From a virus, in IMG/VR virus record IMGVR_UViG_3300017605_001304, positions 1 through 64,000 of that record: a stretch of 64,000 nt of DNA, one strand, 5' to 3'. The notes beneath the pieces are model-generated. The model saw nothing but the letters and a program-made list of their open reading frames with translations, had not been told where the DNA came from and did not search any database. The position numbers and the translations under genes are program-made. Of the stretch, positions 1,242 through 51,934 are shown one piece after another. The number at the start of each line of letters is the position of its first letter. Positions within the stretch are counted from its first letter, which is position 1.

Positions 1242-1330
1242 GACGAACCTGACGAACTTGGCGAACCTGCTTGCACCCAGTTGCGCCTGATTGCACCCGG
1301 TTGCATGGGATTGCACCGGTTCGCACTTCA
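1242..1330. repeat. Intergenic periodic repeats: 3 x 9-bp G[AG]CGAAC[CT]T, then 6 x 10-bp TTGC-initiated units
   Basis: gacgaacct/gacgaactt/ggcgaacct at 1242, 1251, 1260; ttgcacccag/ttgcgcctga/ttgcacccgg/ttgcatggga/ttgcaccggt/tcgcacttca at 1271-1330. Confidence 0.85.
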
Positions 1331-3424
1331 CGGCGTGAGCACCCAGATCGGCGAGCTCCAGGCGACGTGAAAGTCCGCCTGCACGAGGCGGACGTAGTAG
1401 GCGTGGTAGACCCCGTCGTGCAGGGGCAGCGGGTCGGACCAGCCCCAGGAGATGTCGGAGCTGGCGAAGGTCGTGGTCGCGACGACCTGATCGTCGCGGA
1501 CGATGTCGGCCTTGGTGAAGGTCGGCCGGTCGTTGATCCCGATGCCGGCTGCGTGGCCTTCGACCGAGAAGGCCGGTGCCGAGCAGATCTCCTCGTCGCC
1601 CATCTCGGCACCGTTCGCCGTGGTCCAGTCGAGGAAGATGCGAGCACCGGTCGTCCCGTACGTGTGGCGCTTCCGGATCGCGTCCCAGATGCGGGCTCTC
1701 TTGTTGCCGACGGCACGCGAGGCTCGCACGAAGGCGAGGCCGGTCCGCTCGTACTCGACGCCCGCTTCCACGATGTTGCCGCTGTACCCGTGCTGGTCGC
1801 TGCCGGCGATGATGCCGAAGCGATACCCGAGCTTGAGAGCGGCACGCACGGACGCGAGGTTGCTCAGGTCGCGCTGGTTCGCGACGTCGTGATGGAGCGG
1901 GTAGTCGTCTGGGCTGGTCGCTTGCGCGAGCCAGACTTCGGACGAGCCGTGCGCCGAGTAGATCTCGACGACGGGCTGGTAGTTCGCGTCGAGCTCGCTG
2001 CCCCACTCGTACGGGGCGTTGATGGGCGGCTGGCCGTGCAGGTTGAAGTTCCAGAGCGTGTGATGCGGGATCCCGAAGTGCTGGCTGTCCGTCGGGCCCG
2101 TCTTCAGGTAGCTCAGGAAGTTGTCGGTCGTGTTCTGCAGGACCGGACCCGGCGTCTCGTAGCCGAGGTAGGTGTCCTCCGTGATCGCGGCGTCCATCGT
2201 CAGGTTGCGGTACACGACGTGGCGGTGCGAGCCGGGCAGCGTCCACTCGTATCCCGGAAAGCAGACGAACGTGTCCCAGCCGACCTTCGACTGGAAGAGC
2301 GCCGCCTGTAGGTTCGCATGCGCGAAGCCCGACATGTAGTTCTGGCTGTGCTGCACGACGGTGCCGAAGTCCTGGCAGTCGTCGTAGAGATCCCGCCAGC
2401 AGTAGTCGTCGGTGACCGCAGCGTGGCCGCCTTCGGCCGCGTGCCGCTGGAAGTCGCCGCACAAGATCTCCAAGTCGTCGGTCGACGGCAGCACGGAGAT
2501 CGGGTTGCTGAGGCCCTGCACGCCGTAGAGCGTCGCCGTGCCCGGCGGGCCGGCGTACACGTGGAACGTCTGCAGGCCGGGCGTCGAGAGCGTCGCCCAG
2601 AACTCTTGCACGCCGTGGTCGAAGGCCGGCGGCACCTGCGGGTACGTGACCAGCAGGTCCGAGCAGAGGATGCTGACCGGCGAGGAGTAGTCCTCGACCG
2701 GCAGGATCGACGTGCCACCTGGATTGTCCGCGCCCTGCACCGCTCGAACCGTGACGCGGAACGCGACGCCAGCTCGTGCCGTGACCGGACCGTTCACGAT
2801 GAAGCGCTCGGCCACGGCGCCGGTAAAGAGGATCGCAGGCAGGTCCGCCGACGAGAGCGCGTACTGCCCGTTGCCGGCGAAGTCCTCGGCGACGTAGACC
2901 TGCGGAGAGCCCGGGTTCCACGAGAGCGTCATGCCGGCTCCCGAGCCGAGCGTGATCGTGATCACCGTGCCGGTCACGAGCTTCGCGCCGGTCGTGATCT
3001 TGAGCAGCACCTCGTGGCCGTAGTTCGCGCGGTAGATCTTCGTGAGCGTCAGCGGCTGGCCGTTCGACGTCGACGCCGTGCAGTAGTTCGCGCCGTTGGG
3101 ATTCGTGATCTGGAAGCGGCCGAGCGGGAATCTCGCCATCGCTTGTGCAGGCCCGAGCAGCCAGCCCGAGTTCACCGCGTAGGCCGGGTTGCTCGTGTCC
3201 GGCGTCGGGTAGCCGAGCCCGATCATGATCCCGCCGTTCGCCTTGATCGGCGTCGCACCGACCGTGTACTTGACGACGAACGTCTGGTGGCCGACGGCCG
3301 GATCCGCCTCGTAGTCCGGCCACAGGCCGAGCGGCTCTTGGCCGGGCTGGATCGAGACGCGATTCGGAGTCACCGTGACTGTCGGCACCTGCAACAGCAA
3401 GGCACACACGAGTGCTGCGAACAT
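1328..3424 (-). CDS. Secreted PHP-fold metallohydrolase (DUF3604/CehA-McbA-like)
   Basis: Signal-peptide-like N-terminus; motifs GYEWT, HRHVVY, IPHH, VEIYSAHG, GIIAGSDQH, YGTTGARI, C-terminal AWSSPIW; strong RBS. Confidence 0.75.
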   Translation of the reverse strand: MFAALVCALLLQVPTVTVTPNRVSIQPGQEPLGLWPDYEADPAVGHQTFVVKYTVGATPIKANGGIMIGLGYPTPDTSNPAYAVNSGWLLGPAQAMARFPLGRFQITNPNGANYCTASTSNGQPLTLTKIYRANYGHEVLLKITTGAKLVTGTVITITLGSGAGMTLSWNPGSPQVYVAEDFAGNGQYALSSADLPAILFTGAVAERFIVNGPVTARAGVAFRVTVRAVQGADNPGGTSILPVEDYSSPVSILCSDLLVTYPQVPPAFDHGVQEFWATLSTPGLQTFHVYAGPPGTATLYGVQGLSNPISVLPSTDDLEILCGDFQRHAAEGGHAAVTDDYCWRDLYDDCQDFGTVVQHSQNYMSGFAHANLQAALFQSKVGWDTFVCFPGYEWTLPGSHRHVVYRNLTMDAAITEDTYLGYETPGPVLQNTTDNFLSYLKTGPTDSQHFGIPHHTLWNFNLHGQPPINAPYEWGSELDANYQPVVEIYSAHGSSEVWLAQATSPDDYPLHHDVANQRDLSNLASVRAALKLGYRFGIIAGSDQHGYSGNIVEAGVEYERTGLAFVRASRAVGNKRARIWDAIRKRHTYGTTGARIFLDWTTANGAEMGDEEICSAPAFSVEGHAAGIGINDRPTFTKADIVRDDQVVATTTFASSDISWGWSDPLPLHDGVYHAYYVRLVQADFHVAWSSPIWVLTP

Positions 3425-3441
3425 GTCGATCCTCCTCCTAA

Positions 3442-3475
3442 CGGGTTAGATACGCGTTTCGAGGAGGTTCAAGGT
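3442..3475 (-). promoter_or_regulatory. Putative promoter TTGAAC-N18-TAACCC upstream of the hydrolase
   Basis: Minus strand accttgaacctcctcgaaac matches 49258-49277 at 19/20 positions. Confidence 0.5.
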
Positions 3476-3520
3476 AGCGAACCTCTATTTCAGTCGACAG
3501 CGGTAGCTGGGGTGAAAAAC

Positions 3521-3538
3521 GATCTGTATTACAGGATC
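3521..3538. promoter_or_regulatory. Degenerate copy of the GACCTGTA-N-TACAGGTC operator
   Basis: gatctgtattacaggatc contains the core CTGTA-T-TACAG. Confidence 0.55.
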
Positions 3539-3559
3539 TGGCTCCCCGGAGACCGATCT

Positions 3560-3778
3560 CTAAGTGACTGGCGTTCCTGAACTTACGATCGTCATTTTCG
3601 TGTAGCCTCGAACCTCCGGGAAACACGTACTGACGAGGTTCGAGGTGGATGCCCCTCGCAGCCGCATGCCGAGTCGGCTGAGCTCCATCAGGACATCGAG
3701 CTCGATGACGATCTGGTTCTGCAGCTTGACGGGCAGGACCGCAGTCGTCGGCCAGGGCAGCGGGGAGCGAAGGCTCAT
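3560..3778 (-). CDS. Micro-protein, ELSxxGxRL family with NLVSTCFPEVR tail
   Basis: 72 aa; ATGA coupling to the upstream ORF; paralogous to neighbours. Confidence 0.6.
   Translation of the reverse strand: MSLRSPLPWPTTAVLPVKLQNQIVIELDVLMELSRLGMRLRGASTSNLVSTCFPEVRGYTKMTIVSSGTPVT
3606..3645. repeat. Inverted-repeat element CCTCGAACCTC-N18-GAGGTTCGAGG (copy 1)
   Basis: Perfect 11-bp arms at 3606-3616 and 3635-3645; spacer cgggaaacacgtactgac. Confidence 0.85.
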
Positions 3779-3927
3779 AGGACGCCATCCAGCACGGTCG
3801 AAGTGGACACCCGTCGTAACCGAGTGCCTAAGCGGCTGAGCTCCATGAAGACGTCGAAGCGGTCGTTGAGCAACAGGCTCAGCTCGGCAGGGAGCTGCAG
3901 GCGCAGCGCGTAGCGGCAGGTCATCAT
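3775..3927 (-). CDS. Micro-protein, ELSxxGxRL family
   Basis: 50 aa; DVFMELSRLGTRLR is near-identical to the downstream paralog; ATGA overlaps. Confidence 0.6.
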   Translation of the reverse strand: MMTCRYALRLQLPAELSLLLNDRFDVFMELSRLGTRLRRVSTSTVLDGVL

Positions 3928-4064
3928 CTTCCCGCACCCAGCAGGCGGAACAGGACGAGGTCGCACGGCTGCGCCGCTACGCCGGGAGAGAAGCGGCCCC
4001 AGACGCTGGAGATCAGCCGGTTGACGGCGTTGTTGAAGAGCCGCGGCGGCAAGGGAGTCATCAT
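3924..4064 (-). CDS. Micro-protein, RLxxxxWxxFxPG family
   Basis: 46 aa, AVNRLISSVWGRFSPG. Confidence 0.55.
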   Translation of the reverse strand: MMTPLPPRLFNNAVNRLISSVWGRFSPGVAAQPCDLVLFRLLGAGR

Positions 4065-4210
4065 CTTCGCGCTCCCAGCAGCTCGTCGAAGACCACGTGG
4101 ATGGACACGGACGCGAGGCCCGGCCGGAAGGCGTTCCAGATGTCGGCGATCAGCCACCGCGCATCGTCCGACAGAAGGTAGAGCAGGCGCACGTCCAGCT
4201 TGGACTTCAT
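4061..4210 (-). CDS. Micro-protein, WxxFxPG family (not in ORF track)
   Basis: Hand translation MKSKLDVRLLYLLSDDARWLIADIWNAFRPGLASVSIHVVFDELLGARR; ATGA overlaps at both ends. Confidence 0.6.
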   Translation of the reverse strand: MKSKLDVRLLYLLSDDARWLIADIWNAFRPGLASVSIHVVFDELLGARR

Positions 4211-4350
4211 CGGCGGATGTCCAGCATGACAGCAAGGATCACCCCCGAGAACGTCGCCGCTTGACCCGGCGCGAAGAAGACGTTCCAGAGATGCTCGGTC
4301 AGTCGATCTAGGTCGACGGACACGAACCAGTAGTTGCCGTCCACCTTCAT
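4207..4350 (-). CDS. Micro-protein, WxxFxPG family
   Basis: 47 aa, DLDRLTEHLWNVFFAPG. Confidence 0.55.
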   Translation of the reverse strand: MKVDGNYWFVSVDLDRLTEHLWNVFFAPGQAATFSGVILAVMLDIRR

Positions 4351-4541
4351 CGGTCTCGAACCTCCTGGAAACACGTACTGACGATGTTCACGAGGGACGC
4401 GGTGAGTAGCCGCATGCCGCTGTTCGTGAGCAGGCTGAGGGCACGGAGGCCGCGGTACTGATAGACCATCCACTGCAGGCGGTCAGGGAGCTCCTGCGCC
4501 GGTCGCTTCAGCAGGGCGAACTTCGGGTTGGGCTTCATCAC
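4347..4541 (-). CDS. Micro-protein with GMRL and NIVSTCFQEVR tail
   Basis: 64 aa; paralog of 3560-3778. Confidence 0.55.
   Translation of the reverse strand: MMKPNPKFALLKRPAQELPDRLQWMVYQYRGLRALSLLTNSGMRLLTASLVNIVSTCFQEVRDR
4355..4394. repeat. Inverted-repeat element copy 2 (right arm degenerate)
   Basis: ctcgaacctc-ctggaaacacgtactgac-gatgttcacgag. Confidence 0.8.
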
Positions 4542-4705
4542 CGTGCGTCCAGCAGGGCGCGTAGAACTGCGCGTACGGCCTGGGTCTGCTGATTGCCGTG
4601 CGTGAAGAAGTCCCAGTACGTCCCCACCAGCCGGTGGACAAGGACCGAGCCCTTCTTCAGCGGCAGCTCCGCGATGGGCTTACGCGTCGAGCGTTTGTGC
4701 GGCAC
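4538..4705 (-). CDS. Micro-protein, RLxxxxWxxFxxG family (not in ORF track)
   Basis: Hand translation MPHKRSTRKPIAELPLKKGSVLVHRLVGTYWDFFTHGNQQTQAVRAVLRALLDAR. Confidence 0.55.
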   Translation of the reverse strand: MPHKRSTRKPIAELPLKKGSVLVHRLVGTYWDFFTHGNQQTQAVRAVLRALLDAR

Positions 4706-4892
4706 GCCTCGATCTCCCGGCTCGAACCTTCTGGAAACACGAATCGATGAGGTTCGAGAGATTCCCCCGCATGTTGATTTCCCCGAGGTCCAAGCCGTAC
4801 CACGCCCACGTCACGGGGATGGCCCGGAGCTCGGGCGGCAACGGGGTGGACGGTAGCCGCATCACCGCGTGATGCTTGCGCGTGTCGGTCAC
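4680..4892 (-). CDS. Micro-protein with NLIDSCFQKVR tail
   Basis: 70 aa; same C-terminal module as 3560-3778 and 4347-4541. Confidence 0.55.
   Translation of the reverse strand: MTDTRKHHAVMRLPSTPLPPELRAIPVTWAWYGLDLGEINMRGNLSNLIDSCFQKVRAGRSRRAAQTLDA
4721..4758. repeat. Inverted-repeat element copy 3
   Basis: ctcgaacctt-ctggaaacacgaatcgat-gaggttcgag, 18-bp spacer. Confidence 0.8.
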
Positions 4893-5038
4893 GTCTCACC
4901 TCGCAGCGGCTGCAGGGCCGCGTTCCAGAGCTTGGTCCCGATTCCACTCAGCTCGTAGAACGGCCACAGCTCGCCCGGCCACAGCTCGCCGTAGAGGAGC
5001 TCCAGCACCCAGACGGGCGGGGCGGGCCGGGGATTCAC
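4889..5038 (-). CDS. Micro-protein, hybrid LWP + YELSGIGTKL
   Basis: 49 aa; GTGA coupling. Confidence 0.55.
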   Translation of the reverse strand: MNPRPAPPVWVLELLYGELWPGELWPFYELSGIGTKLWNAALQPLRGET

Positions 5039-5169
5039 GGCAGCCCCCGCAGCAGGAAGAGGGTGGGGATCTCGCCGGCCCGCGGCCATCCACCGAAATC
5101 GCGCCAGAGGCTGCAGACCAGCCAGAAGACCTCATCCGGTACACGCGGAATCGGAACGATGGTCCTCAT
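5035..5169 (-). CDS. Micro-protein, WLxxxLWxxF family
   Basis: 44 aa, MRTIVPIPRVPDEVFWLVCSLWRDFGG. Confidence 0.5.
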   Translation of the reverse strand: MRTIVPIPRVPDEVFWLVCSLWRDFGGWPRAGEIPTLFLLRGLP

Positions 5170-5381
5170 GGATCTCGAACCTCTCGGAAACGAGGTTTCT
5201 GCATGGACCCTTCCGGGAACAGCCAACTGTAGAGCTCCCCGGCAGCCGGGATCGAGCGCGTCTCCAAGACGTCGGTGAGAGCCGCCACGCAAGCCGGCCC
5301 GGCGCGACCCGGCCAGAAGTAGAACCAGAGGTCCGACAAGATCCGGTCTAAGACCTCGGTCGTCAAGGGCGGCACGAACAT
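5166..5381 (-). CDS. Micro-protein, WxxFxPG family with FREVR tail
   Basis: 71 aa, VLDRILSDLWFYFWPG; contains a shortened repeat copy ctcgaacctc-tcggaaac-gaggtttc at 5174-5199. Confidence 0.55.
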   Translation of the reverse strand: MFVPPLTTEVLDRILSDLWFYFWPGRAGPACVAALTDVLETRSIPAAGELYSWLFPEGSMQKPRFREVRDP

Positions 5382-5382
5382 G

Positions 5383-5532
5383 TCAGACCCTCTTGCAGGC
5401 CGCGTGGAGCGCTTGCAGCGTAGCGTGGCGTAGCCGAGCCCCGATGCCGCTGAGCTCGTAGCAGGGCCACAGCGCGCCGGTCAGGAGCCGGGCCATCGAC
5501 AGGGGAAGCGCAGCGGGGGGCCGGGCGATCAC
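5383..5532 (-). CDS. Micro-protein, LWP + YELSGIGARL
   Basis: 49 aa from GTG 5532; paralog of 4889-5038. Confidence 0.55.
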   Translation of the reverse strand: MIARPPAALPLSMARLLTGALWPCYELSGIGARLRHATLQALHAACKRV

Positions 5533-5681
5533 GTGAAGCGCACTTCCAGGAGGCGCGACAAGGCGAACGGGAAGTTCCAGCTCACCATCTCGTACGTCAC
5601 CAGATCCACGAAGCCCGGCAGGAGCCGGACCACCAAGTTCACCACCTCGGTCGGTACTTGCGGTTCGTTGGCGAGGTTCAT
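5529..5681 (-). CDS. Micro-protein (not in ORF track)
   Basis: Hand translation MNLANEPQVPTEVVNLVVRLLPGFVDLVTYEMVSWNFPFALSRLLEVRFT; coupled at both ends. Confidence 0.5.
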   Translation of the reverse strand: MNLANEPQVPTEVVNLVVRLLPGFVDLVTYEMVSWNFPFALSRLLEVRFT

Positions 5682-5782
5682 TCCCAAAGCTCCTCCATGA
5701 GCTCAAGGACTTCCAGCGCCGGCACGCTCTGGATGATCGTGTGGTCCACGTGCGGGCCCCTCACCAGTTCTTGAACACTCAT
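5678..5782 (-). CDS. Micro-protein, LxxGP family
   Basis: 34 aa, MSVQELVRGPH. Confidence 0.45.
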   Translation of the reverse strand: MSVQELVRGPHVDHTIIQSVPALEVLELMEELWE

Positions 5783-5946
5783 CGCAACAGCTCCCGCAGG
5801 GCGTTGCTGACCGCCGCGGTCGGGGCCAGCAACTCCAGGATGCGCGACTCCTCCAGCCACACGATGAAGCGGCGCGACTGCTCGGCCGTGTCCGGACCCA
5901 CGGCATCCGGTCCATGCACGAGCCGGAAGACTAGAGGGGCAACCAC
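5779..5946 (-). CDS. Micro-protein, LxxGP family (not in ORF track)
   Basis: Hand translation MVAPLVFRLVHGPDAVGPDTAEQSRRFIVWLEESRILELLAPTAAVSNALRELLR. Confidence 0.45.
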   Translation of the reverse strand: MVAPLVFRLVHGPDAVGPDTAEQSRRFIVWLEESRILELLAPTAAVSNALRELLR

Positions 5947-6101
5947 CAGACCATCCTCTTCAACGCCACGTCGAAGGCGTCGCGCAGGGACATCTCACAG
6001 TCGAGGAGCTCGTCCCAAACGACGTCGCACGGAGGCGATTCTAGCCCCTTGGGGAGGCGCTCCGGTCCGTAGAGCAGCCGGATGCGGGCAACGCGATTCA
6101 C
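5931..6101 (-). CDS. Micro-protein, LxxGP family (not in ORF track)
   Basis: Hand translation MNRVARIRLLYGPERLPKGLESPPCDVVWDELLDCEMSLRDAFDVALKRMVWWLPL. Confidence 0.45.
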   Translation of the reverse strand: MNRVARIRLLYGPERLPKGLESPPCDVVWDELLDCEMSLRDAFDVALKRMVWWLPL

Positions 6102-6247
6102 TTCAAGACCTCCGTCAACGCGAACACGAAGAGGTGATCGTGCTGGACGTCGGTGATGATACGCGACCAGACGAACAGCATCAGCACGCTGAACTCGGGG
6201 CTGACGTACGCGTGGTTCGGACGCGCCGCGATGTACACGGAGTTCAT
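6098..6247 (-). CDS. Micro-protein
   Basis: 49 aa, MNSVYIAARP...ALTEVLK; ATGA coupling. Confidence 0.5.
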   Translation of the reverse strand: MNSVYIAARPNHAYVSPEFSVLMLFVWSRIITDVQHDHLFVFALTEVLK

Positions 6248-6393
6248 GCTTCGAAGAGCTCCTGAAACGCGTACCGGAACGAGAGCGACAGCTCGCCCGG
6301 ACGAAACGCCCACCAGAGCGCCGCGACCAGCCGGTTCACCGCGACCGGAGCTCGCGGGTCCATGTAGCCGCGCATGCTGTGGACCGGGTTCAT
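6244..6393 (-). CDS. Micro-protein, WxxFxPG family
   Basis: 49 aa; AVNRLVAALWWAFRPG matches 3924-4064. Confidence 0.6.
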   Translation of the reverse strand: MNPVHSMRGYMDPRAPVAVNRLVAALWWAFRPGELSLSFRYAFQELFEA

Positions 6394-6560
6394 GCGAGTA
6401 GGTCGCCGTAAGCGTTCCTGTTGCTGAACCATGGCACCTCGCACTCCGACGGGAAGAGGCCGCCCGCGGACGCGCCCGCGTCGAGGTAGACGCCCCACAA
6501 GCGAGCCGAGAACAGGCGCGGCCAGCCGGTGTGCCAATCAGCTCTAACGACGCGCAGCAT
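6390..6560 (-). CDS. Micro-protein, WxxxWPxxFxxxLW family (not in ORF track)
   Basis: Hand translation MLRVVRADWHTGWPRLFSARLWGVYLDAGASAGGLFPSECEVPWFSNRNAYGDLLA. Confidence 0.55.
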   Translation of the reverse strand: MLRVVRADWHTGWPRLFSARLWGVYLDAGASAGGLFPSECEVPWFSNRNAYGDLLA

Positions 6561-6561
6561 G

Positions 6562-6768
6562 CTAGATCCCCGCGAAGAGGTTGAGATTCAGCAGCCAGTA
6601 GCCCGCCGGAACCCCGTTCCGTAGCTCCCTGCGGTGCTCCTCCGAAAGGACGTCGCGGCAGGCGGTGTAGAACTCCCACCACAACCCCTCATCGAAGGGA
6701 CGGGGCCAGCCGTCGTGCCACTTCCGCTGCGCCGTGGCCAGCGGCTCCTCGTTCGAGCGGAGGCTCAT
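6562..6768 (-). CDS. Micro-protein, WxxxWPxxF family
   Basis: WHDGWPRPFDEGLWWEFY. Confidence 0.55.
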   Translation of the reverse strand: MSLRSNEEPLATAQRKWHDGWPRPFDEGLWWEFYTACRDVLSEEHRRELRNGVPAGYWLLNLNLFAGI

Positions 6769-6769
6769 G

Positions 6770-6976
6770 TCACAGGCTCCGGAGGATCGTCTCAACGAGG
6801 CTCCAGGGGAAGTCGAGACGGTGCATCCAACTGCCCTGACGCGGCTGCTTCATGGCGTACCTAAAGTACGGGTCCCACATCTCGTCCAGGAACGGCGCTG
6901 GCCAACTGCTGAACCACGTGATCGGCAGACGCCGGCTGCGCAGGCCGCGCTTATTAGTGGAGTCCGGGAGCAGCAC
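6770..6976 (-). CDS. Micro-protein, WxxxWPxxF family
   Basis: WFSSWPAPFLDEMWDPYF. Confidence 0.55.
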   Translation of the reverse strand: MLLPDSTNKRGLRSRRLPITWFSSWPAPFLDEMWDPYFRYAMKQPRQGSWMHRLDFPWSLVETILRSL

Positions 6977-7226
6977 TCGGCACCTCTTCAGGCAGAGTGT
7001 TCAACCACGCGGCCGCGGTGTCGAGCTCCTCGCGCTCTTCCTTCGCGGCGAGTCGCTTGGTCGCCCACAGCGCCGACATCTCGATCGAGACGAGGCGCTG
7101 CTCTTCCTTGGCGATCAGGTCACGCAGGATCTCTTTAGGACTCTTCATCCGCGAACTCCGCCTGGGGCTTGGGGACGAACGACTCGTCCCGGAACACGTA
7201 GACGCACCTCGGATAGTACCGCTCAT
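6954..7226 (-). CDS. Small coiled-coil hypothetical protein (start 7226 or 7148)
   Basis: Helical, charged ORF in operon. Confidence 0.5.
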   Translation of the reverse strand: MSGTIRGASTCSGTSRSSPSPRRSSRMKSPKEILRDLIAKEEQRLVSIEMSALWATKRLAAKEEREELDTAAAWLNTLPEEVPSAAPGLH

Positions 7227-7582
7227 CGTCCCTTGAGGACCACGTCGTCCGGGTGGGCGTTCGAGAGATCCTTCTGCAGCGGATCGTCGTCGGTCGTGAA
7301 GTGATGCGCGGGCGACGATCCGCTCCGCTTCGGTTCTCCGTAGAAGGCCCCGTCACCGGTGAAGCGCGTCTCGTCACAAGAACGCGTCATCAGCAAGACG
7401 ACCATCGTGAACAGAGAGGCGACCACGCCAGTAACGCCGGCCGCCTGCGCGCTCCCGTCGCTCTGCCGCGCCTTGTAGATGGCACGCAGACTCAGCGGGA
7501 TTCCGATGAAGATACACGCGAGCGCCGCGAACAGCAGCAGCTCGTGCGGCGGGGTCGACATGATCTCGCGAAACGTGCTCAT
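7223..7582 (-). CDS. Two-TM membrane protein
   Basis: Two hydrophobic segments; RBS. Confidence 0.6.
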   Translation of the reverse strand: MSTFREIMSTPPHELLLFAALACIFIGIPLSLRAIYKARQSDGSAQAAGVTGVVASLFTMVVLLMTRSCDETRFTGDGAFYGEPKRSGSSPAHHFTTDDDPLQKDLSNAHPDDVVLKGR

Positions 7583-7600
7583 GCTCCTTCTCCTCCTGAC

Positions 7601-7879
7601 CTAAATGGAATCCTCGATCTCGATCGAACGCAGCGAGCGGGCAGGCCCGAGTCCGAGGCTCTCGCGAACACGAAGGGAGCTGATCTTCTCCCGTTCGCCG
7701 TCGAACTCTTCGAGCCAGCCGCGCTCGCGGCCGTATTGGTCCCGCTCCAGGACGAGCCACGACTGGCGCTCGCTCCGCTTGCCGGTGCTGCGCGAGATGC
7801 TCTGGACGAAGATCGACTTGCAGCCGACCTCTTCCCACCGAGGCCGGAAGTGGATCGCGCGTAGGAGTTTCCTCAGCAT
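7601..7879 (-). CDS. Hypothetical protein
   Basis: MLRKLLRAIHF..., overlapping the phosphoesterase stop. Confidence 0.5.
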   Translation of the reverse strand: MLRKLLRAIHFRPRWEEVGCKSIFVQSISRSTGKRSERQSWLVLERDQYGRERGWLEEFDGEREKISSLRVRESLGLGPARSLRSIEIEDSI

Positions 7880-8436
7880 GGTTCCGCCTTCAGCGCCGCG
7901 CGGCGCTCCTTGAGCAGGTCCCGTAGGAGCTGGGGTCGCCACTCCTGGCACTGCTCGGCTGATACGCAGATGAACCGCCGATCCTCCAGCGCATGCGTGT
8001 GCATGTGCCCGTGCACGTTCAGCTCGAAGCGGTGAAACTGATTCGGGTTGACCGGGATGTGCGTCAGCAGGCAACCGTCGAACTCGAAGCAGGCGCGGAC
8101 CTTCGAGAACAGCTTGTCGTAGGTCGCGACGGGCCGCTGGTCGTGGTTGCCGAGCGCGAGCTTCTTCGTGCCCTTCAGCTCCGCGACGCGGTCCACCTGG
8201 AACACGTCGCCCAGCACGTAGACCACGTCACGCTTCGTCACGGTCGCGTTCCAGGCTGCGACCAGGGCGTCGTCGTGCTCCTGCGTCGACGCGAAGCCGC
8301 GCACCCCGGCCACCTTGACGTGTCCGAAGTGCAGGTCTGCGATCACGAAGACGCGTCCACCGGACTCGGCCAACGGAATCCCTTTCAGTTGGGGCCTGCT
8401 GCATCCACGCCGGGCCCCGGCGACGCTCGCACCCAT
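7873..8436 (-). CDS. Calcineurin-like metallophosphoesterase (likely start TTG 8373)
   Basis: ADLHFGH, LGDV, GNHD, THIP, HGHMH motifs. Confidence 0.9.
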   Translation of the reverse strand: MGASVAGARRGCSRPQLKGIPLAESGGRVFVIADLHFGHVKVAGVRGFASTQEHDDALVAAWNATVTKRDVVYVLGDVFQVDRVAELKGTKKLALGNHDQRPVATYDKLFSKVRACFEFDGCLLTHIPVNPNQFHRFELNVHGHMHTHALEDRRFICVSAEQCQEWRPQLLRDLLKERRAALKAEPC

Positions 8437-8536
8437 GTCCTAGGTACACGGTCAGTTCCGGGCGGTGCCCGTTACGCAGTCGGCCCGTCCCGCTGCAGCT
8501 TCAGGAGGCGTAGCTCAGGTGGCATCGGCTTGGAAT

Positions 8537-8578
8537 GAAACAGGGGCCGATACCCATGTGCTGGATACCGGCCCCCTG
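8537..8578 (-). terminator. Rho-independent terminator
   Basis: GGGGCCGGTATC...GGTATCGGCCCC stem followed by TGTTTC on the minus strand. Confidence 0.55.
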
Positions 8579-8610
8579 GAGTCACGTAGGCTCCGTGGTG
8601 TCGCCTTCGA

Positions 8611-9030
8611 TCAGTCGGCGACCGCGCGCTTCGTGGAGAGGTCCTCCTGGAAGCGCACCTCGTAGCAGCCCGTCGGCAGGTCGATGTGCGCGTGCTCCGG
8701 GTGCGTCAGCGTCGCCGACTTCCCGAGCACCTCGAACACCGGGCCCGTCAGCGAGTCGCCGTTGTCCCGCGCCCACACCTTGACCTGACCCGCCAGCACG
8801 TGGCGGGAGCCCTGGGTGTTGCCGGGCGCGAGCTGGCGCTCCTGCGTCTCCTTGAGGCCGCTCGGGATCGCCTTGATCCGGACGGCGTAGACGTCGCCCT
8901 GGCGCACGAACTGCCCCGCCTCGATCTTGCGGACCACACGCGTGGTCTGCTTCGCCTTCGCGGCGATCTTCTCGATCCCCGCGACCGCAGCCGCCGCATC
9001 GGCGGGCTGCGCCTTGGTCTTCGTCGCCAT
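8611..9030 (-). CDS. Small His-rich protein usually encoded next to DUF6745 genes
   Basis: RQGDV...GSRH...THPEH...LPTGCYEVRFQ...RAVAD pattern. Confidence 0.7.
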   Translation of the reverse strand: MATKTKAQPADAAAAVAGIEKIAAKAKQTTRVVRKIEAGQFVRQGDVYAVRIKAIPSGLKETQERQLAPGNTQGSRHVLAGQVKVWARDNGDSLTGPVFEVLGKSATLTHPEHAHIDLPTGCYEVRFQEDLSTKRAVAD

Positions 9031-9138
9031 GTGTCCTCCCACGGAATGTCCACTTTCTGAAGGAGGCCGAGACACCTCGGCCTCCGGACTCGATACAGCC
9101 TACCAGTCGTGTTCGTTCAGTGCAAGTCCCGACTTGCG

Positions 9139-10302
9139 TCAGGACTGCGCGACCATGTCCTTCTCCTTCAGGCGGGAGATCGCCTCGTGCGCCTGCGCGC
9201 ACGTCTTCACGTCGTTCGGCGCGAGCATGTAGTACACGCGCGACGTCGAGCTGTCGGAGCCGACCAACCAGCGCTGGTTCTCGTCGTCCTCCAGGAGGAC
9301 CCGGCTGCAGCCGCCGAGGAGCGGGTCGTCCACGTGAGCGGCCGACTCGTCCCAGTCGATGAGCTTCGCCTTGATCTCCAGGAGGTAGCGGCCCTCGCCG
9401 AACTTCTCGCGGGCGATGCGGCGGACCTCCGCGTTGGTCTGGCCCTTGATGTACTCGACCGTGATCTTCTCGGGGTTGTCGATGATCAGGCGCGGGATCG
9501 CGACACCGTTCCACTGGTAGAGCTTGAAGCCGTCCCGGAACTCCACGGCCGGGTGGTCGTGGTCGTTCAGGCGCTTCTGCTCGTCCATCTCGAACCGGAG
9601 GGGCCGGTCGCAGACGATCACGAAGTCCTCGCCCATCATGCGCGGGCCGCTGTGGATGGCCGCCTTCTCGTAGGGGGCCCACTCGTCGTACAGCTTGCCC
9701 AGGTCGAAGGCGCAGACGTCCCGGAAGAACGAGAGGCAGGCCGGGTAGCCCGACCAGAGGTTCCCGCCGTTCCAGATGTCGTAGTAGCCCTTGATCGCCT
9801 GGGAGAGCTCCTTGACGAGCGCCTTGTCCTCCTTGCCCTCCGGACCCTTCACGGTCGTCGCGAGCGCAGCGAAGATCGCTTCGAGCGTCTCCGTACGGAA
9901 CGTCTTGAAGTTGACGCGGTAGGGGTAGGTGTCGTCGTCCTTCTGGGAGAGCAGCTTCTCGACCGCCTCCACGGCGCCGAGGATGCTCGCCCGCAGGTCC
10001 GGATCGATCTCCTGCGTCGTGCCCGGCTTGATCTTGCGCTTCTTCATCTGCTCCCACGCCTTGGCGGCGATCGCGCCGGCCACGGCCAGCACGAGGTGCG
10101 AGCGGACGAACACGATGGCCTTCGGCGGAGCCGCCGGCACGTTCGCGTACATCACGTTGATCGCGTCGGCTGTCTTCTCCCGGTCCTCGGCGCTCATCGT
10201 CTCGCACGACATCGTGATCTTCTGCCACTTGAGAGCATGAGGCCGGATCTGGGCCTTGTGCTCCTCGGTGAGCTCGTACTTCTTCTGGTCCTTCGTTGCC
10301 AT
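9139..10302 (-). CDS. DUF6745-like domain protein
   Basis: IVCDRP...DEQKRLN...PAVEFRDG...WNGVAIP...NAEVRR...G..RYL...DSSTSRVYY..P pattern. Confidence 0.7.
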   Translation of the reverse strand: MATKDQKKYELTEEHKAQIRPHALKWQKITMSCETMSAEDREKTADAINVMYANVPAAPPKAIVFVRSHLVLAVAGAIAAKAWEQMKKRKIKPGTTQEIDPDLRASILGAVEAVEKLLSQKDDDTYPYRVNFKTFRTETLEAIFAALATTVKGPEGKEDKALVKELSQAIKGYYDIWNGGNLWSGYPACLSFFRDVCAFDLGKLYDEWAPYEKAAIHSGPRMMGEDFVIVCDRPLRFEMDEQKRLNDHDHPAVEFRDGFKLYQWNGVAIPRLIIDNPEKITVEYIKGQTNAEVRRIAREKFGEGRYLLEIKAKLIDWDESAAHVDDPLLGGCSRVLLEDDENQRWLVGSDSSTSRVYYMLAPNDVKTCAQAHEAISRLKEKDMVAQS

Positions 10303-10351: not shown

Positions 10352-11233
10352 TCAAGACGCCGCGGCGTCGTGGTCTTCCTTCTCCGAACCGGCCACGCTC
10401 AAGTCAGGCATGACGTCAAGGTTCTGGAACGCCGTCGTAGCGTCCTTGCCGGACGGGTCAACGACCGGCTTGAACTTCAAGCTGAGGCCGTCCCGGAACT
10501 CGACGTAGCCCGCCGCGGGTGAGAACAGGAGCGGACGGTCGCAGACGATGGCGAAGTCCTCGCCCATCATGCGCGGTCCCGAGATGAGCGCGAGCTTCTC
10601 GTAAGGCTCCCACTCCGCGTAGAGCTTCCGCATGTGTTCGTCATCGAACTTGCAGACGTCTCGGAAGAACGAGAGGGTCGCAGGGTAACCCGACCAGAGG
10701 TTCCCGCCGTTCCAGATGTCGTAGTAGCCCTTGGGGGCAGCGCGCAGTTCCACCTGGATGGCCTTGTCCACCTCGCCGACTTTGCCTTCCAGGCTCGTGG
10801 CGAGCGCGCCGAAGACCGCGGCGCGCGTCTCCTGCTCGAAGGTCTCCCGCTGCACGCTGTACGTCTCGGGGCGAGCACGCGCCTCCACGCCCTTGCCGAA
10901 GAGCGAAATCACCGACTCGATGGTGGCCCGAAGATCCGCGTCGATCTCTCGCCTCTCGCCCATCTTGAGGTCCGGCGCCGGGGCGTGCTCCCACGCCTTG
11001 GCGGCGATGGATCCGGCGACGGCGAGTACGAGGTGCGAACGAACGAACACCATGGCCTTGGGCGGCGCCGCCTGCGCGTTGACGTACATGGCGGCGAGCA
11101 GCGGCTTCGCCTGCGCCCGATCCTCGTCACTCATCGGCTCGCACGACTCCGCGTTCCGTCGCCACTTCCCGGCGTGAACCGGGATCTGCGCCTTGTGCTC
11201 TTCCGTGAGCTGATACGTCGGCTTCTCGCTCAT
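10352..11233 (-). CDS. C-terminally truncated paralog of 9139-10302
   Basis: Shares FVRSHLVLAVAG, KGYYDIWNGGNLWSGYPA and GPRMMGEDF; ends shortly after VEFRDG. Confidence 0.8.
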   Translation of the reverse strand: MSEKPTYQLTEEHKAQIPVHAGKWRRNAESCEPMSDEDRAQAKPLLAAMYVNAQAAPPKAMVFVRSHLVLAVAGSIAAKAWEHAPAPDLKMGERREIDADLRATIESVISLFGKGVEARARPETYSVQRETFEQETRAAVFGALATSLEGKVGEVDKAIQVELRAAPKGYYDIWNGGNLWSGYPATLSFFRDVCKFDDEHMRKLYAEWEPYEKLALISGPRMMGEDFAIVCDRPLLFSPAAGYVEFRDGLSLKFKPVVDPSGKDATTAFQNLDVMPDLSVAGSEKEDHDAAAS

Positions 11234-11255
11234 GGGCTCCTCCTCTTCCTTTGCG

Positions 11256-11474
11256 TTAGAAGGTTCGATCCACCGGCCAGTTGACCGCGCGACGCAACGC
11301 ACGGATCACGAAGGCCGTCAAGGTTCGGTTCTTCTCCAGCTTCGCGTGCTCCGCTGCTTTCTCGATCGCTTCCCGAAGGTCCGGAGGGATACGCACCACG
11401 AGATGCCGGTTCCCGTACACGCGCCTACCGTCTCTGTCGACTCGCGGCTCGACGTCTCCGCTCGGAGCGGCCAT
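11256..11474 (-). CDS. Ribbon-helix-helix (Arc/HicB-like) DNA-binding protein
   Basis: HLVVRIPPDLREAIEKAA...RTLTAFVIRAL. Confidence 0.7.
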   Translation of the reverse strand: MAAPSGDVEPRVDRDGRRVYGNRHLVVRIPPDLREAIEKAAEHAKLEKNRTLTAFVIRALRRAVNWPVDRTF

Positions 11475-49257: not shown

Positions 49258-49297
49258 ACCTTGAACCTCCTGGAAACCCACGTTAACCTAGGTTCGA
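49258..49297 (+). promoter_or_regulatory. Promoter TTGAAC-N17-TAACCT inside a GAACCT...AGGTTC element
   Basis: ttgaac ctcctggaaacccacgt taacct aggttcga. Confidence 0.6.
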
Positions 49298-49917: not shown

Positions 49918-50118
49918 ATGTTCAAGGACCGCTACCGCATGCGGTGGACCCGGGTCGGTGCTGCCGGGTACGTCGGACTCGCGATGCGGGCCTCCAGGAA
50001 CACGACGACGCTGCCGGTCACCGGCGGCAACGGGCAGGTCCTCTTCCTGATGCTGTGGAACCAGGGCACCACGCGCGTCGCGCAAGAGGTCGACCGGCTG
50101 CTCGGGGCACGTAGATGA
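49918..50118 (+). CDS. Micro-protein array B, ORF1
   Basis: MFKDRYRMRW...RLLGARR. Confidence 0.6.
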   Translation: MFKDRYRMRWTRVGAAGYVGLAMRASRNTTTLPVTGGNGQVLFLMLWNQGTTRVAQEVDRLLGARR

Positions 50119-50330
50119 ACTTCAAGCACCGCTTCGATCTTCGGTGGCGCAACGCGCCGTGGCCGAGCTCCATCATGCCCACCTGGACGTTGCGGGTCGG
50201 TCCGGAAGACGAGCTGACCTTCTCGATGCTGGACGTCAACCGCATCGAGGACATGATGTTCGAGGCGAACCACGGCGCCGAGAACGTGTTCGCGATGAAC
50301 CTCAGCGGCTTGTTCAGGGACCGTTCATGA
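50115..50330 (+). CDS. Micro-protein array B, ORF2
   Basis: MNFKHRF..W...L.VGP...LFRDRS. Confidence 0.65.
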   Translation: MNFKHRFDLRWRNAPWPSSIMPTWTLRVGPEDELTFSMLDVNRIEDMMFEANHGAENVFAMNLSGLFRDRS

Positions 50331-50557
50331 ACTTCAAGAAGCGCTACGAGTTCTGGTGGCAGCCGCAGCGAGAGTGGTTCGGTCGCGTGCCGGGAGAGGT
50401 CGAGTGCGCGCTGTCGATCGGCCCCGGCATCGGGACGATGGTCTTCACGGAGCAGGACGCCGGCAGCATCGGGGACCTCATCTTCAGCGTGAACCACAAC
50501 CCCCGCGGCGAGGGTTTCACCGCGCACCTGCAAGAACTCTTCCGGGATCGGTCATGA
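50327..50557 (+). CDS. Micro-protein array B, ORF3 (paralog of ORF2)
   Basis: MNFKKRY..W...LSIGP...LFRDRS. Confidence 0.65.
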   Translation: MNFKKRYEFWWQPQREWFGRVPGEVECALSIGPGIGTMVFTEQDAGSIGDLIFSVNHNPRGEGFTAHLQELFRDRS

Positions 50558-50775
50558 ACCCGCACGGCCGCTACTACGCGCAGTGGCACACGCAGCGAGG
50601 GTGGCGAGGCGGCAAGTCGCCGAAAGTTCACTACGTCCTGACGCTCGGCCCATGCAGCGACGAGATGGTATTCTCGTGGCAAGACGCTACGTCTGTCTCG
50701 GACCTGCTCGCGATGGACAGCCTCGGCGAGCGCAGCGTCGCCGTGAGCCTGGACCTCTTGCTCGGTGCATCATGA
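50554..50775 (+). CDS. Micro-protein array B, ORF4 (paralog)
   Basis: GRYYAQW...LTLGP..EMVFSWQD..SVSDL. Confidence 0.65.
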   Translation: MNPHGRYYAQWHTQRGWRGGKSPKVHYVLTLGPCSDEMVFSWQDATSVSDLLAMDSLGERSVAVSLDLLLGAS

Positions 50776-50996
50776 ACATGGCCCGCGCCACGCTGTGTAC
50801 GCTCTACGTGAACGTCAGCGAAGGGGGTGACACACGCCTTTACTTCGATGGCTGGGGCCGTACGCCGACCACGTGGTATATGGCGACCCACGACTGGGTG
50901 CAGCTCACGTTCATGCGGCACCGCGTCGACCTCTGCTCGCACTGGCTCAACGTATTCAAGGACGACGCGCTGAGGACCCTGTTCAAGGCGGCATGA
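50772..50996 (+). CDS. Micro-protein array B, ORF5
   Basis: RLYFDGWG...LRTLFKAA; ATGA coupling. Confidence 0.55.
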   Translation: MNMARATLCTLYVNVSEGGDTRLYFDGWGRTPTTWYMATHDWVQLTFMRHRVDLCSHWLNVFKDDALRTLFKAA

Positions 50997-51256
50997 ACAT
51001 GAGCATGCGTACCCGTGCCGCGACCGAGTGCCACTGGAACTTGGACAGCCTGAGTGCGGGTGACCTCGCGGTGTATTTCTACCGCGGCGGCATGCAGGTC
51101 TGCGCCATCGCGGTCACCGCCGCCCTCGCTGACGCGATGCTCCAGCTTCGCGACCGTCGAGGGTCCTGCTGCGGCGACCTCGGGCACTGCTCGGTCGAGC
51201 ACAGCGGCGAGGCGGGCTGCAACGAGCTGAGCGACCTGCTCCGGAGCCTCTGGTGA
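50993..51256 (+). CDS. Micro-protein array B, ORF6
   Basis: AVYFYRGG; ATGA coupling. Confidence 0.55.
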   Translation: MNMSMRTRAATECHWNLDSLSAGDLAVYFYRGGMQVCAIAVTAALADAMLQLRDRRGSCCGDLGHCSVEHSGEAGCNELSDLLRSLW

Positions 51257-51480
51257 CCTTCCCGCAACTCACGCAGGTCCGCTGGGAGGCCGTCTGGCCG
51301 ACGAACGGCCCGGCTGCCGCGCTCTACTTCTACTGCGGGGGTCGTCGGATCGAGGGGATCGCACTCGACAAGAAGAGCTGGTTCGCGTTCATCGACCTGC
51401 GCGACGAGCTGGAGGGAGTCACCCTCTCCTTCCGGCTCGCCCTCTCCGACGCGGCGGGTGCTCTGTTCGGGGAACCGTGA
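51253..51480 (+). CDS. Micro-protein array B, ORF7
   Basis: ALYFYCGG; GTGA coupling. Confidence 0.55.
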   Translation: MTFPQLTQVRWEAVWPTNGPAAALYFYCGGRRIEGIALDKKSWFAFIDLRDELEGVTLSFRLALSDAAGALFGEP

Positions 51481-51713
51481 TGTGGATCACGGATGAGGTC
51501 TTCGGCGAAGCAAAGCCGCTGCGCCTGACGGCGGCGCGCAGCAACGAGCTGTCCCGAGTCACGGTTGGCGTGGCCGGAGTGATATGGTCGACGTGCATCT
51601 GCTGGGTCTGCCGCGAGCAGATCGCGACGATTACGGAGTTGCGTCCCCTCTACGATCTCTTCGCTCCCGAAGGGAGCGTTCCTTACACCCTCGTGGACCT
51701 GTTCAAGCCATGA
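51477..51713 (+). CDS. Micro-protein array B, ORF8
   Basis: Coupled; ends LVDLFKP. Confidence 0.5.
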   Translation: MMWITDEVFGEAKPLRLTAARSNELSRVTVGVAGVIWSTCICWVCREQIATITELRPLYDLFAPEGSVPYTLVDLFKP

Positions 51714-51934
51714 CCACGCTCTCGATTCACGCGAGCTCGCCCATGTACAACCACGGGCTGCGGGTCGACCTCATCGTGGAGATGGAGTCGAAGTCGCTGT
51801 GCTTCTGCGGCAACTGGTCGCGGTGGGACGTGATGACGCCGCTGCTGGAGCTCAACCTGCCGCGCGTTGACGTCGACCTGCGGGAGTGCATGGGGACGGT
51901 GCTGGGGGTTGAGAGCGATACGTCGCCTGAGTGA
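51710..51934 (+). CDS. Micro-protein array B, ORF9
   Basis: ATGA coupling; SLCFCGNW. Confidence 0.5.
   Translation: MTTLSIHASSPMYNHGLRVDLIVEMESKSLCFCGNWSRWDVMTPLLELNLPRVDVDLRECMGTVLGVESDTSPE

Follow-up and report, generated by a model that had tools for sequence, protein, structure and literature searches.

IMG/VR virus record IMGVR_UViG_3300017605_001304 is a single contig of 149,155 bp with a GC content of 64.8%, and its first 64 kb (64,000 nucleotides) form the stretch analysed here, which we refer to as the window. Between positions 3560 and 6976, its minus strand carries 21 consecutive open reading frames (ORFs) of 34–72 amino acids (aa), designated A (6976–6770) to U (3778–3560). This array spans ~3.4 kb, or 2.3% of the phage genome. 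Fifteen of the 21 ORFs fall into three families of paralogues, F1 with seven members, F2 with five and F3 with three, and some carry a ‘tail’ of the type N[LI]VxxCFxEVR (U, P and N, and partially K), which is encoded by a 38-nt repeat. In the order of the array, the members are the following:

6770–6976, minus strand: A, 68 aa, GTG start, family F3 (Trp-rich, W..WP..F..W)
6562–6768, minus strand: B, 68 aa, family F3
6390–6560, minus strand: C, 56 aa, family F3
6244–6393, minus strand: D, 49 aa, family F1 (WxxFxPG, predicted helical hairpin)
6098–6247, minus strand: E, 49 aa, singleton
5931–6101, minus strand: F, 56 aa, GTG start, N-terminal L..GP, weak F1-like second helix
5779–5946, minus strand: G, 55 aa, GTG start, L..GP motif, 16-nt overlap with F
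5678–5782, minus strand: H, 34 aa, L..GP motif, lowest coding score
5529–5681, minus strand: I, 50 aa, singleton
5383–5532, minus strand: J, 49 aa, family F2 (ELSxxGxRL, one long predicted helix)
5166–5381, minus strand: K, 71 aa, N-terminal part of F1 type, extended by 25 aa with the tail element at their end
5035–5169, minus strand: L, 44 aa, family F1, starting 10 nt after the K copy of the element
4889–5038, minus strand: M, 49 aa, family F2, nearest paralogue of J (z 15.6), with a 15-nt internal duplication
4680–4892, minus strand: N, 70 aa, resembling P and U solely in the tail element, whose offset (nt 135) is that found in U
4538–4705, minus strand: O, 55 aa, family F1, 26-nt overlap with N
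4347–4541, minus strand: P, 64 aa, family F2 plus tail element
4207–4350, minus strand: Q, 47 aa, family F1, starting 10 nt after the P copy of the element
4061–4210, minus strand: R, 49 aa, family F1 (the member modelled)
3924–4064, minus strand: S, 46 aa, family F1
3775–3927, minus strand: T, 50 aa, family F2
3560–3778, minus strand: U, 72 aa, family F2 plus tail element

These ORFs are joined with hardly a nucleotide to spare. According to a script check, 14 of the 20 junctions are 4-nt ATGA or GTGA overlaps, while three (A/B, B/C and J/K) leave a 1-nt gap after the stop codon, in the pattern TGAcATG or TAGcATG. The overlaps at F/G and N/O are longer, and A itself overlaps the upstream 64-aa gene by 23 nt. 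No promoter-like sites were found within 3000–9200.

Several independent signals bear on whether these ORFs are translated. The GC content at third codon positions (GC3) lies between 0.8 and 0.97, and its phase shifts every ~150–200 nt, exactly at the junctions; pooled over the ORFs, the values for the three codon positions (0.63/0.46/0.84) are the same as in the long genes of the phage. With a codon model trained on 38 long genes, the ORF's own frame is the best of six in all 21 cases, the weakest scores being those of H, K, S and J. Upstream of the 21 starts, pairing with the anti-Shine-Dalgarno (anti-SD) sequence averages -6.4 kcal/mol, compared with -2.6 kcal/mol for 97 other ATG or GTG codons of the region (Mann-Whitney p = 4e-8). 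Since these signals agree, the 21 ORFs are, by all sequence evidence, real genes and not chance ORFs in GC-rich DNA. An earlier examination of the bare sequence, hereafter the sequence-only reading, had described them as back-to-back minus-strand ORFs of this size, mostly joined by ATGA or GTGA, and as translationally coupled genes of small proteins; the coordinates and overlaps bear out the former, and the frame, codon and SD signals together with the overlaps support the latter. Recoding of stop codons or read-through across the array is ruled out by the change of GC3 phase at each junction. The last 10 codons of U, which have a low GC3, look like read-through into the spacer that follows.

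Three paralogous families and their predicted proteins

The array proteins resemble each other far beyond chance. In Smith-Waterman comparisons against 300 shuffles, 26 of the 210 pairs reach z > 4, with a maximum of z = 15.6, and leave-one-out hidden Markov models (HMMs), searched against the six-frame set of the genome, recover every family member at E-values of 1e-12 to 0.03. The recurrent families arising from local duplication that the sequence-only reading had proposed are thereby confirmed. F1 (D, K, L, O, Q, R and S) is characterized by an invariant Trp and Phe in the motif WxxFxPG, F2 (J, M, P, T and U) by the motif ELSxxGxRL, and F3 (A, B and C) by nine invariant columns, four of which are Trp. 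As for the remainder, E and I are singletons and N shares nothing but the tail, whereas the proposed ‘LxxGP’ family amounts to a short N-terminal L..GP motif, the only feature in common between the neighbours F, G and H. In profile comparisons with hhalign, F1 and F2 as well as F1 and F3 are unrelated (probabilities of ~1%), by which a common origin of the three families is ruled out. Likewise, the ‘LWP+YELSGIG’ arrangement, previously taken for a combination of modules, does not stand: the ‘LWP’ of J and M is a trait of an F2 subfamily and not an F3 module.

All significant DNA matches between paralogues keep the reading frame (frame offset 0), and hence the duplications copied the genes as coding units; a relation between families by way of frameshifts is ruled out by the same observation. 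Gene junctions were copied too, as seen from a 27-nt repeat at R/S, S/T and O/P. Both this repeat, with three occurrences, and the 38-nt element, with four, are situated at gene boundaries, and K looks chimeric. Even the closest paralogues display 80–85% nucleotide identity over 39–65 nt at most; at the protein level, paralogues are 23–58% identical, and their synonymous divergence (dS) is roughly 0.3–1.4. Judged by this nucleotide identity and dS, the copies are old: F1, F2 and F3 were enlarged long ago by tandem duplications that were local and in frame, and their members then diverged strongly. With duplications of this age, the description of the library as ‘expanding’ in the sequence-only reading is not supported. 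Between paralogues, identity at codon positions 1 and 2 (0.52 and 0.59) compares with chance values of 0.27 and 0.26, and that at position 3 (0.51) with 0.37; the excess at the first two positions fits constraint at the protein level.

No transmembrane segments are predicted for the array proteins: the maximum 19-residue Kyte-Doolittle mean is at most 1.63 and mostly below 1.4, which sets them apart from the class of holin-like or single-transmembrane micro-genes. They contain charged residues throughout and have isoelectric points of 4.4–11.8, with Trp making up 3.8% of residues overall. AlphaFold2, run with the paralogue alignments, models F1 as a helical hairpin (predicted local distance difference test score, pLDDT, 68) and F2 as one continuous helix over residues 11–48 (pLDDT 78), so that the description ‘small helical’ proteins fits the predictions for these two families. 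The possibility that F2, with its ELSxxGxRL motif, represents a miniature helix-turn-helix DNA binder is not supported, given the continuous helix predicted and the lack of a match to the helix-turn-helix families in Pfam. Folds consisting of a helical hairpin or a single helix usually act by binding partners.

The 38-nt element and the end of the array

The repeat that encodes the tail has inverted arms of 10 nt each, CTCGAACCTC with its complement, along with a core of the sequence GTTTCCAGGAGGTTCGAG that includes an extended SD motif. Its copies, and the RNA structure in which two of them are predicted to take part, are the following:

3607–3644, minus strand: U copy, 10-bp inverted arms, 18-nt spacer
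4355–4392, minus strand: P copy, 89% identical to the U copy, 5' arm decayed
4721–4758, minus strand: N copy, 84% identical to the U copy
5166–5191, minus strand: K copy, core, spacer shortened
3451–3474, plus strand: inverted non-coding copy, core, in the spacer before the 698-aa gene, pairing with the U copy
49260–49297, minus strand: non-coding copy in the divergent intergenic region beside a second array of mini-genes
3425–3660, minus strand: long-range RNA structure, predicted at the close of the array, -85.3 kcal/mol, z = -3.4

The coding copies are conserved in an unusual manner. All differences between the copies in U, P and N are found at codon positions 1 or 2, while 12 of 12 third positions are identical, and for P against U the non-synonymous divergence (dN, 0.43) exceeds dS (0.28). 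The element moreover retains rare codons (TGT, GTT and CGA, which account for 18%, 5% and 6% of their codon families), in contrast to the paralogues, whose synonymous sites are otherwise saturated. In N, nothing but the element resembles other genes. Given the rare codons, the fixed third positions, the excess of dN over dS and the existence of non-coding copies, the best reading appears to be that the tail is conserved at the nucleotide level and not as a protein module. Thus, the tail family described in the sequence-only reading is recurrent as stated, but what recurs is a nucleotide repeat that is also found outside genes.

The position of the element relative to the next gene hints at its origin. 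It lies exactly 10 nt before the ATG of Q at P/Q and of L at K/L, and is farther from the next start at N/O; in all three cases, the gene that follows is a member of F1. The simplest reading of this arrangement is that the element would be the leader of an F1-type gene, would have been duplicated together with this gene and is translated as a ‘tail’ by the abutting ORF. As for its further role, it may act as a leader, form an RNA structure or be an inverted repeat to which a protein binds. We also considered a tRNA T-arm for the core GGTTCGAG, which is ruled out as no stem can form, and a parS-like site for the GTTTC core, which was dropped because the order of the half-sites differs. Scans of viral and metagenome contigs for the pattern of the element gave no match.

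These observations bear directly on the idea of a library assembled at the protein level, in which peptide modules, including the CFxEVR tail, are swapped by recombination and the tail serves as a docking, degradation or localization tag. Such swapping would explain why K joins an F1 N-terminal part to the tail, why N, P and U carry the tail too, and why it is in the same frame in all four coding copies. We nevertheless regard it as improbable, given that the element is also found non-coding and inverted, that it keeps rare codons and fully conserved third positions while first and second positions vary, that the three families show no mutual relation, and that no module crosses families except for the tail and the motif of F, G and H. 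The ‘shuffled modules’ of the sequence-only reading are therefore better described as mutually unrelated families, some of whose members contain a nucleotide element.

Beyond U, a 136-nt spacer separates the array from the 698-aa gene. The region 3425–3560 has a low GC content (0.53) and holds the inverted copy of the element, 131 nt downstream of the U copy with which it pairs; none of 200 shuffles is as stable as the resulting 236-nt fold. In an alternative pairing, the CCUCCUC of the inverted copy could bind the ribosome-binding site (RBS) of the 698-aa gene (z = -2.9). The structure at 3425–3660, as modelled, could be a processing site, a stabilizer or a switch. The same spacer includes, at ~3521–3537, a copy of the palindrome CTGTAATACAG, with no good -35 or -10 box beside it; at 39.77, 41.60 and 52.31 kb, this palindrome is found in TTGACC-type promoters, overlapping their -35 box and spacer.

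As a separate observation, a second chain of about nine coupled genes of ~70 aa is found on the plus strand at 49918–51934, adjoining the non-coding element copy at 49.27 kb and showing a paralogy of its own (N-terminal MNFK.RY..W type). Its first gene has an LLGARR end followed by ATGA, as does R in the main array; this likeness probably reflects the shared constraints of a junction that combines an SD motif with an overlap.

The phage genome and the variable slot

The phage encodes a T4-type portal, DnaB-like, RecA-like and SbcC-like proteins and baseplate J, together with a DNA polymerase of family A to which a UDG domain is fused. Its portal is less than 30% identical to any entry of the reference collection, which contains no close phage, and on these grounds the genome is, as far as its genes reveal, that of an uncultured, distant T4-like myophage; a nucleotide search of the phage collection likewise gave no match. 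Nearly all genes from 49 kb down to position 1 are on the minus strand. The array is preceded by a strong terminator-like hairpin with a 15-bp stem (8576–8542), the only strong one, from which the gene order leads leftward over a phosphoesterase and several small genes into the array. Together, hairpin and phosphoesterase probably mark the start of the array's transcription unit. Scans for Rfam families and tRNAs returned nothing. The two larger neighbours are the following:

7873–8436: phosphoesterase (PHROG 547, E = 3e-37), the first gene past the terminator-like hairpin
1328–3424, minus strand: DUF3604-like metallohydrolase of 698 aa, downstream of the array, with its own strong RBS; used as synteny anchor

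The array proteins appear to be orphans. Pfam and PHROGs contain no family for any of the 21 at E <= 0.05, and searches with the three family profiles and the 21 single sequences found nothing credible elsewhere in the genome; a match at 141–144 kb (E = 0.019) was dropped, as the F3 profile gives it no backing. In a word-indexed search of 5.8 billion proteins, F2 retrieved only itself, and in a profile search of 1.84 billion cluster representatives, F1 retrieved itself and three matches of a low-complexity type. Pattern scans for F3 in viral and metagenome contigs yielded no credible locus, two candidates being wrong-frame matches inside bacterial housekeeping genes, and scores in the ESM Atlas were at chance level. 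In the collections searched, the three families are thus without outside relatives, in agreement with the initial impression that no described family is present.

By contrast, the 698-aa neighbour has relatives at 76–38% identity, which made the comparison of gene order and content across phages, suggested by the sequence-only reading, possible. In five contigs of GC-rich relatives, the slot upstream of its homologues (76–46% identity) holds four to six coupled small genes of 61–208 aa, unrelated to the array and to each other. Since relatives hold unrelated small genes at this site, the slot is, by this comparison, a variable (hyperplastic) region. As far as public data show, the paralogue expansion would be private to this phage, with the proviso that near-identical genomes could escape the search. 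The contig of the closest relative, Logan SRR22808004, stops 1.3 kb upstream of the anchor gene and displays its slot in part; an O-like fragment of 36 aa at this contig end (E = 0.06, opposite strand) is unconvincing. Synteny via the DUF6745 neighbour led to unrelated phages only.

Some further features of the surroundings deserve mention. On the minus strand at 7135–7250, GC3 is ~0.9 in the frame closing at the stop at 7135, in which no ATG, GTG or TTG is available as a start except within the 119-aa gene that precedes it (7223–7582); the stretch represents either a small gene whose start is non-canonical or a C-terminal extension that a frameshift has separated from the 119-aa protein. At 9139–10302 and 10352–11302, two DUF6745-like paralogues, 56% identical over two thirds of their length, are located side by side. 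In contigs of related phages (L003/L004, 12600–14327), a TnpB/Cas12f-like gene is found immediately downstream of the DUF3604-like gene.

Interpretation and comparison with known systems

The reading that we favour, with somewhat better than even confidence, is that of a lineage-specific block of 21 coupled small genes in a variable slot, made up largely of duplicated orphan families, with a tail that stems from a nucleotide element, and coding for putative host-directed accessory binders. The block would reside inside a long leftward transcription unit and specify soluble, largely helical proteins. Judging from its anatomy, a single polycistronic mRNA would be read gene by gene via the stop-start overlaps, the SD motif for each gene being located in the end of the preceding one. 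We infer that the proteins may be non-essential accessory binders of host components, for example in host takeover or counter-defence; the effectors for anti-defence, host takeover or exclusion that the sequence-only reading put forward would be of this kind.

Several points weigh against this interpretation. Purifying selection among the paralogues, predicted by the sequence-only reading, is visible in the excess at codon positions 1 and 2, but it is modest; the paralogues are near saturation, several pairs have a dN/dS of ~1 or more, and, as the alignments were made on amino acids, which biases dN downwards, this is not a clean dN/dS test. No orthologues were found with which conservation could be compared between phages. 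The structural models are of moderate confidence, and Foldseek searches against viral models returned nothing below E = 5. For the element, the two non-coding copies have no start codons behind them, which leaves the reading as a pure ribosome-binding leader incomplete; hairpins folded from the RNA of one copy alone do not surpass shuffles, and the 5' arm decays without compensatory change. Finally, the 7-nt half-site of the element (AGGTTCG, minus strand) is present in three close direct repeats at 1244–1270, upstream of the next-but-one gene, which encodes a 361-aa protein without a match in Pfam or PHROGs (98–1183); these repeats suggest a DNA-binding protein instead.

A different weighting of the same features would place the element at the centre, as a portable regulatory cassette of this phage lineage. 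It would then be a coding-embedded counterpart of the PeSLs (cassettes of early promoter and stem-loop) of T4-type phages, acting in the translation of F1 genes, as a crossover point that fuses cassettes and stamps the tail, and as an RNA switch, while the mini-proteins would form a repertoire of host-factor binders. The pairing of the U copy with the inverted copy would, in such a system, link translation of U to exposure of the RBS of the metallohydrolase gene. We consider this scenario a rather distant possibility.

Equally doubtful, in our view, is that the ORFs are young and largely functionless ‘proto-genes’, which high GC content keeps open and translational coupling drags along; what matters would then be the repeats, as DNA or RNA, or simply how the operon is spaced. 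The collections searched contain no homologues, several paralogue pairs have a dN/dS near or above 1, the content of the slot is wholly different between relatives, and DNA as GC-rich as this commonly contains long spurious ORFs. However, the ORFs share the codon-position GC pattern of the phage's long genes, have SD motifs before nearly every start and keep their frame upon duplication, and their Trp, Phe, Pro and Gly columns are invariant despite saturated synonymous sites.

Less probable still is a hetero-oligomeric assembly, in which the small proteins act together in fixed ratios. Tight stop-start coupling favours stoichiometric synthesis, and the single long helix predicted for F2, which is amphipathic, and the hairpin predicted for F1 are folds that usually need partners. 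Yet assemblies are normally conserved across related phages, whereas this set is absent from every relative found, and no virion or assembly genes are adjacent. The notion of an artefact, be it one long gene or repeat protein split by assembly frameshifts or chance ORFs among the many long shadow ORFs that high GC yields, is effectively refuted by the SD motif at each of the fourteen exact 4-nt overlaps, the ORFs of 1019 and 1867 aa that the contig carries intact, and the GC3 phase changes and codon-model scores that favour each ORF's own frame.

Blocks of this kind are used by phages to store lineage-specific functions in host interaction, and in metagenomic contigs rich in GC they are for the most part overlooked or called wrongly. 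The tail also serves as a warning that a peptide motif common to unrelated small proteins can be a translated nucleic-acid signal and not a protein module. Should binding of the proteins to host targets be established, three small folds or families would be newly available.

The closest parallels come from other phages with blocks of small genes. Like the hyperplastic regions of T4-type phages, the array consists of small, non-conserved orphan genes between conserved modules, and its content is replaced between relatives. In those regions, PeSLs are intergenic, combine a sigma-70-type early promoter with a terminator stem-loop and occur once per ORFan (Arbiol et al. 2010, PMC2839356; Comeau et al. 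2014, PMC4122927). The 38-nt element resembles them as a short repeated regulatory sequence at gene boundaries that could serve as a recombination point. It differs in being located inside coding sequence and in containing a ribosome-binding motif, and the array, unlike PeSL cassettes, is without intergenic space or promoter-like sites, its genes being chained by 4-nt overlaps. Furthermore, hyperplastic ORFans are unrelated to one another, whereas most genes of the array are paralogues.

Small early genes of T4-like genomes are also duplicated in tandem, by recombination, where counter-defence genes of T4 and T6 undergo segmental amplification (‘accordion’), as at the tifA-dmd locus (PMC9391042) or driven by SegB (PMC13096335). 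There, the copies are recent, near-identical and unstable, whereas those of the array are old, with 25–50% protein identity and saturated synonymous sites; still, gene dosage followed by divergence offers a plausible selective reason for their origin. Phages G and 121Q likewise contain tandem arrays of small paralogous genes, kilobases of them back to back (PMC5646251), but these are single-family arrays without a sequence relationship to the present one, which mixes three unrelated families with six other ORFs. Lastly, the host-takeover module of Bacillus phage SPO1 is a contiguous block of ~26 small genes, several of which bind and disable host proteins (PMC6873191). Its genes do not form paralogous families, have their own early promoters, are located in the terminal redundancy and share no homology with the array; as a contiguous block of many small phage genes, however, the module provides the analogy behind the host-directed role that we propose.

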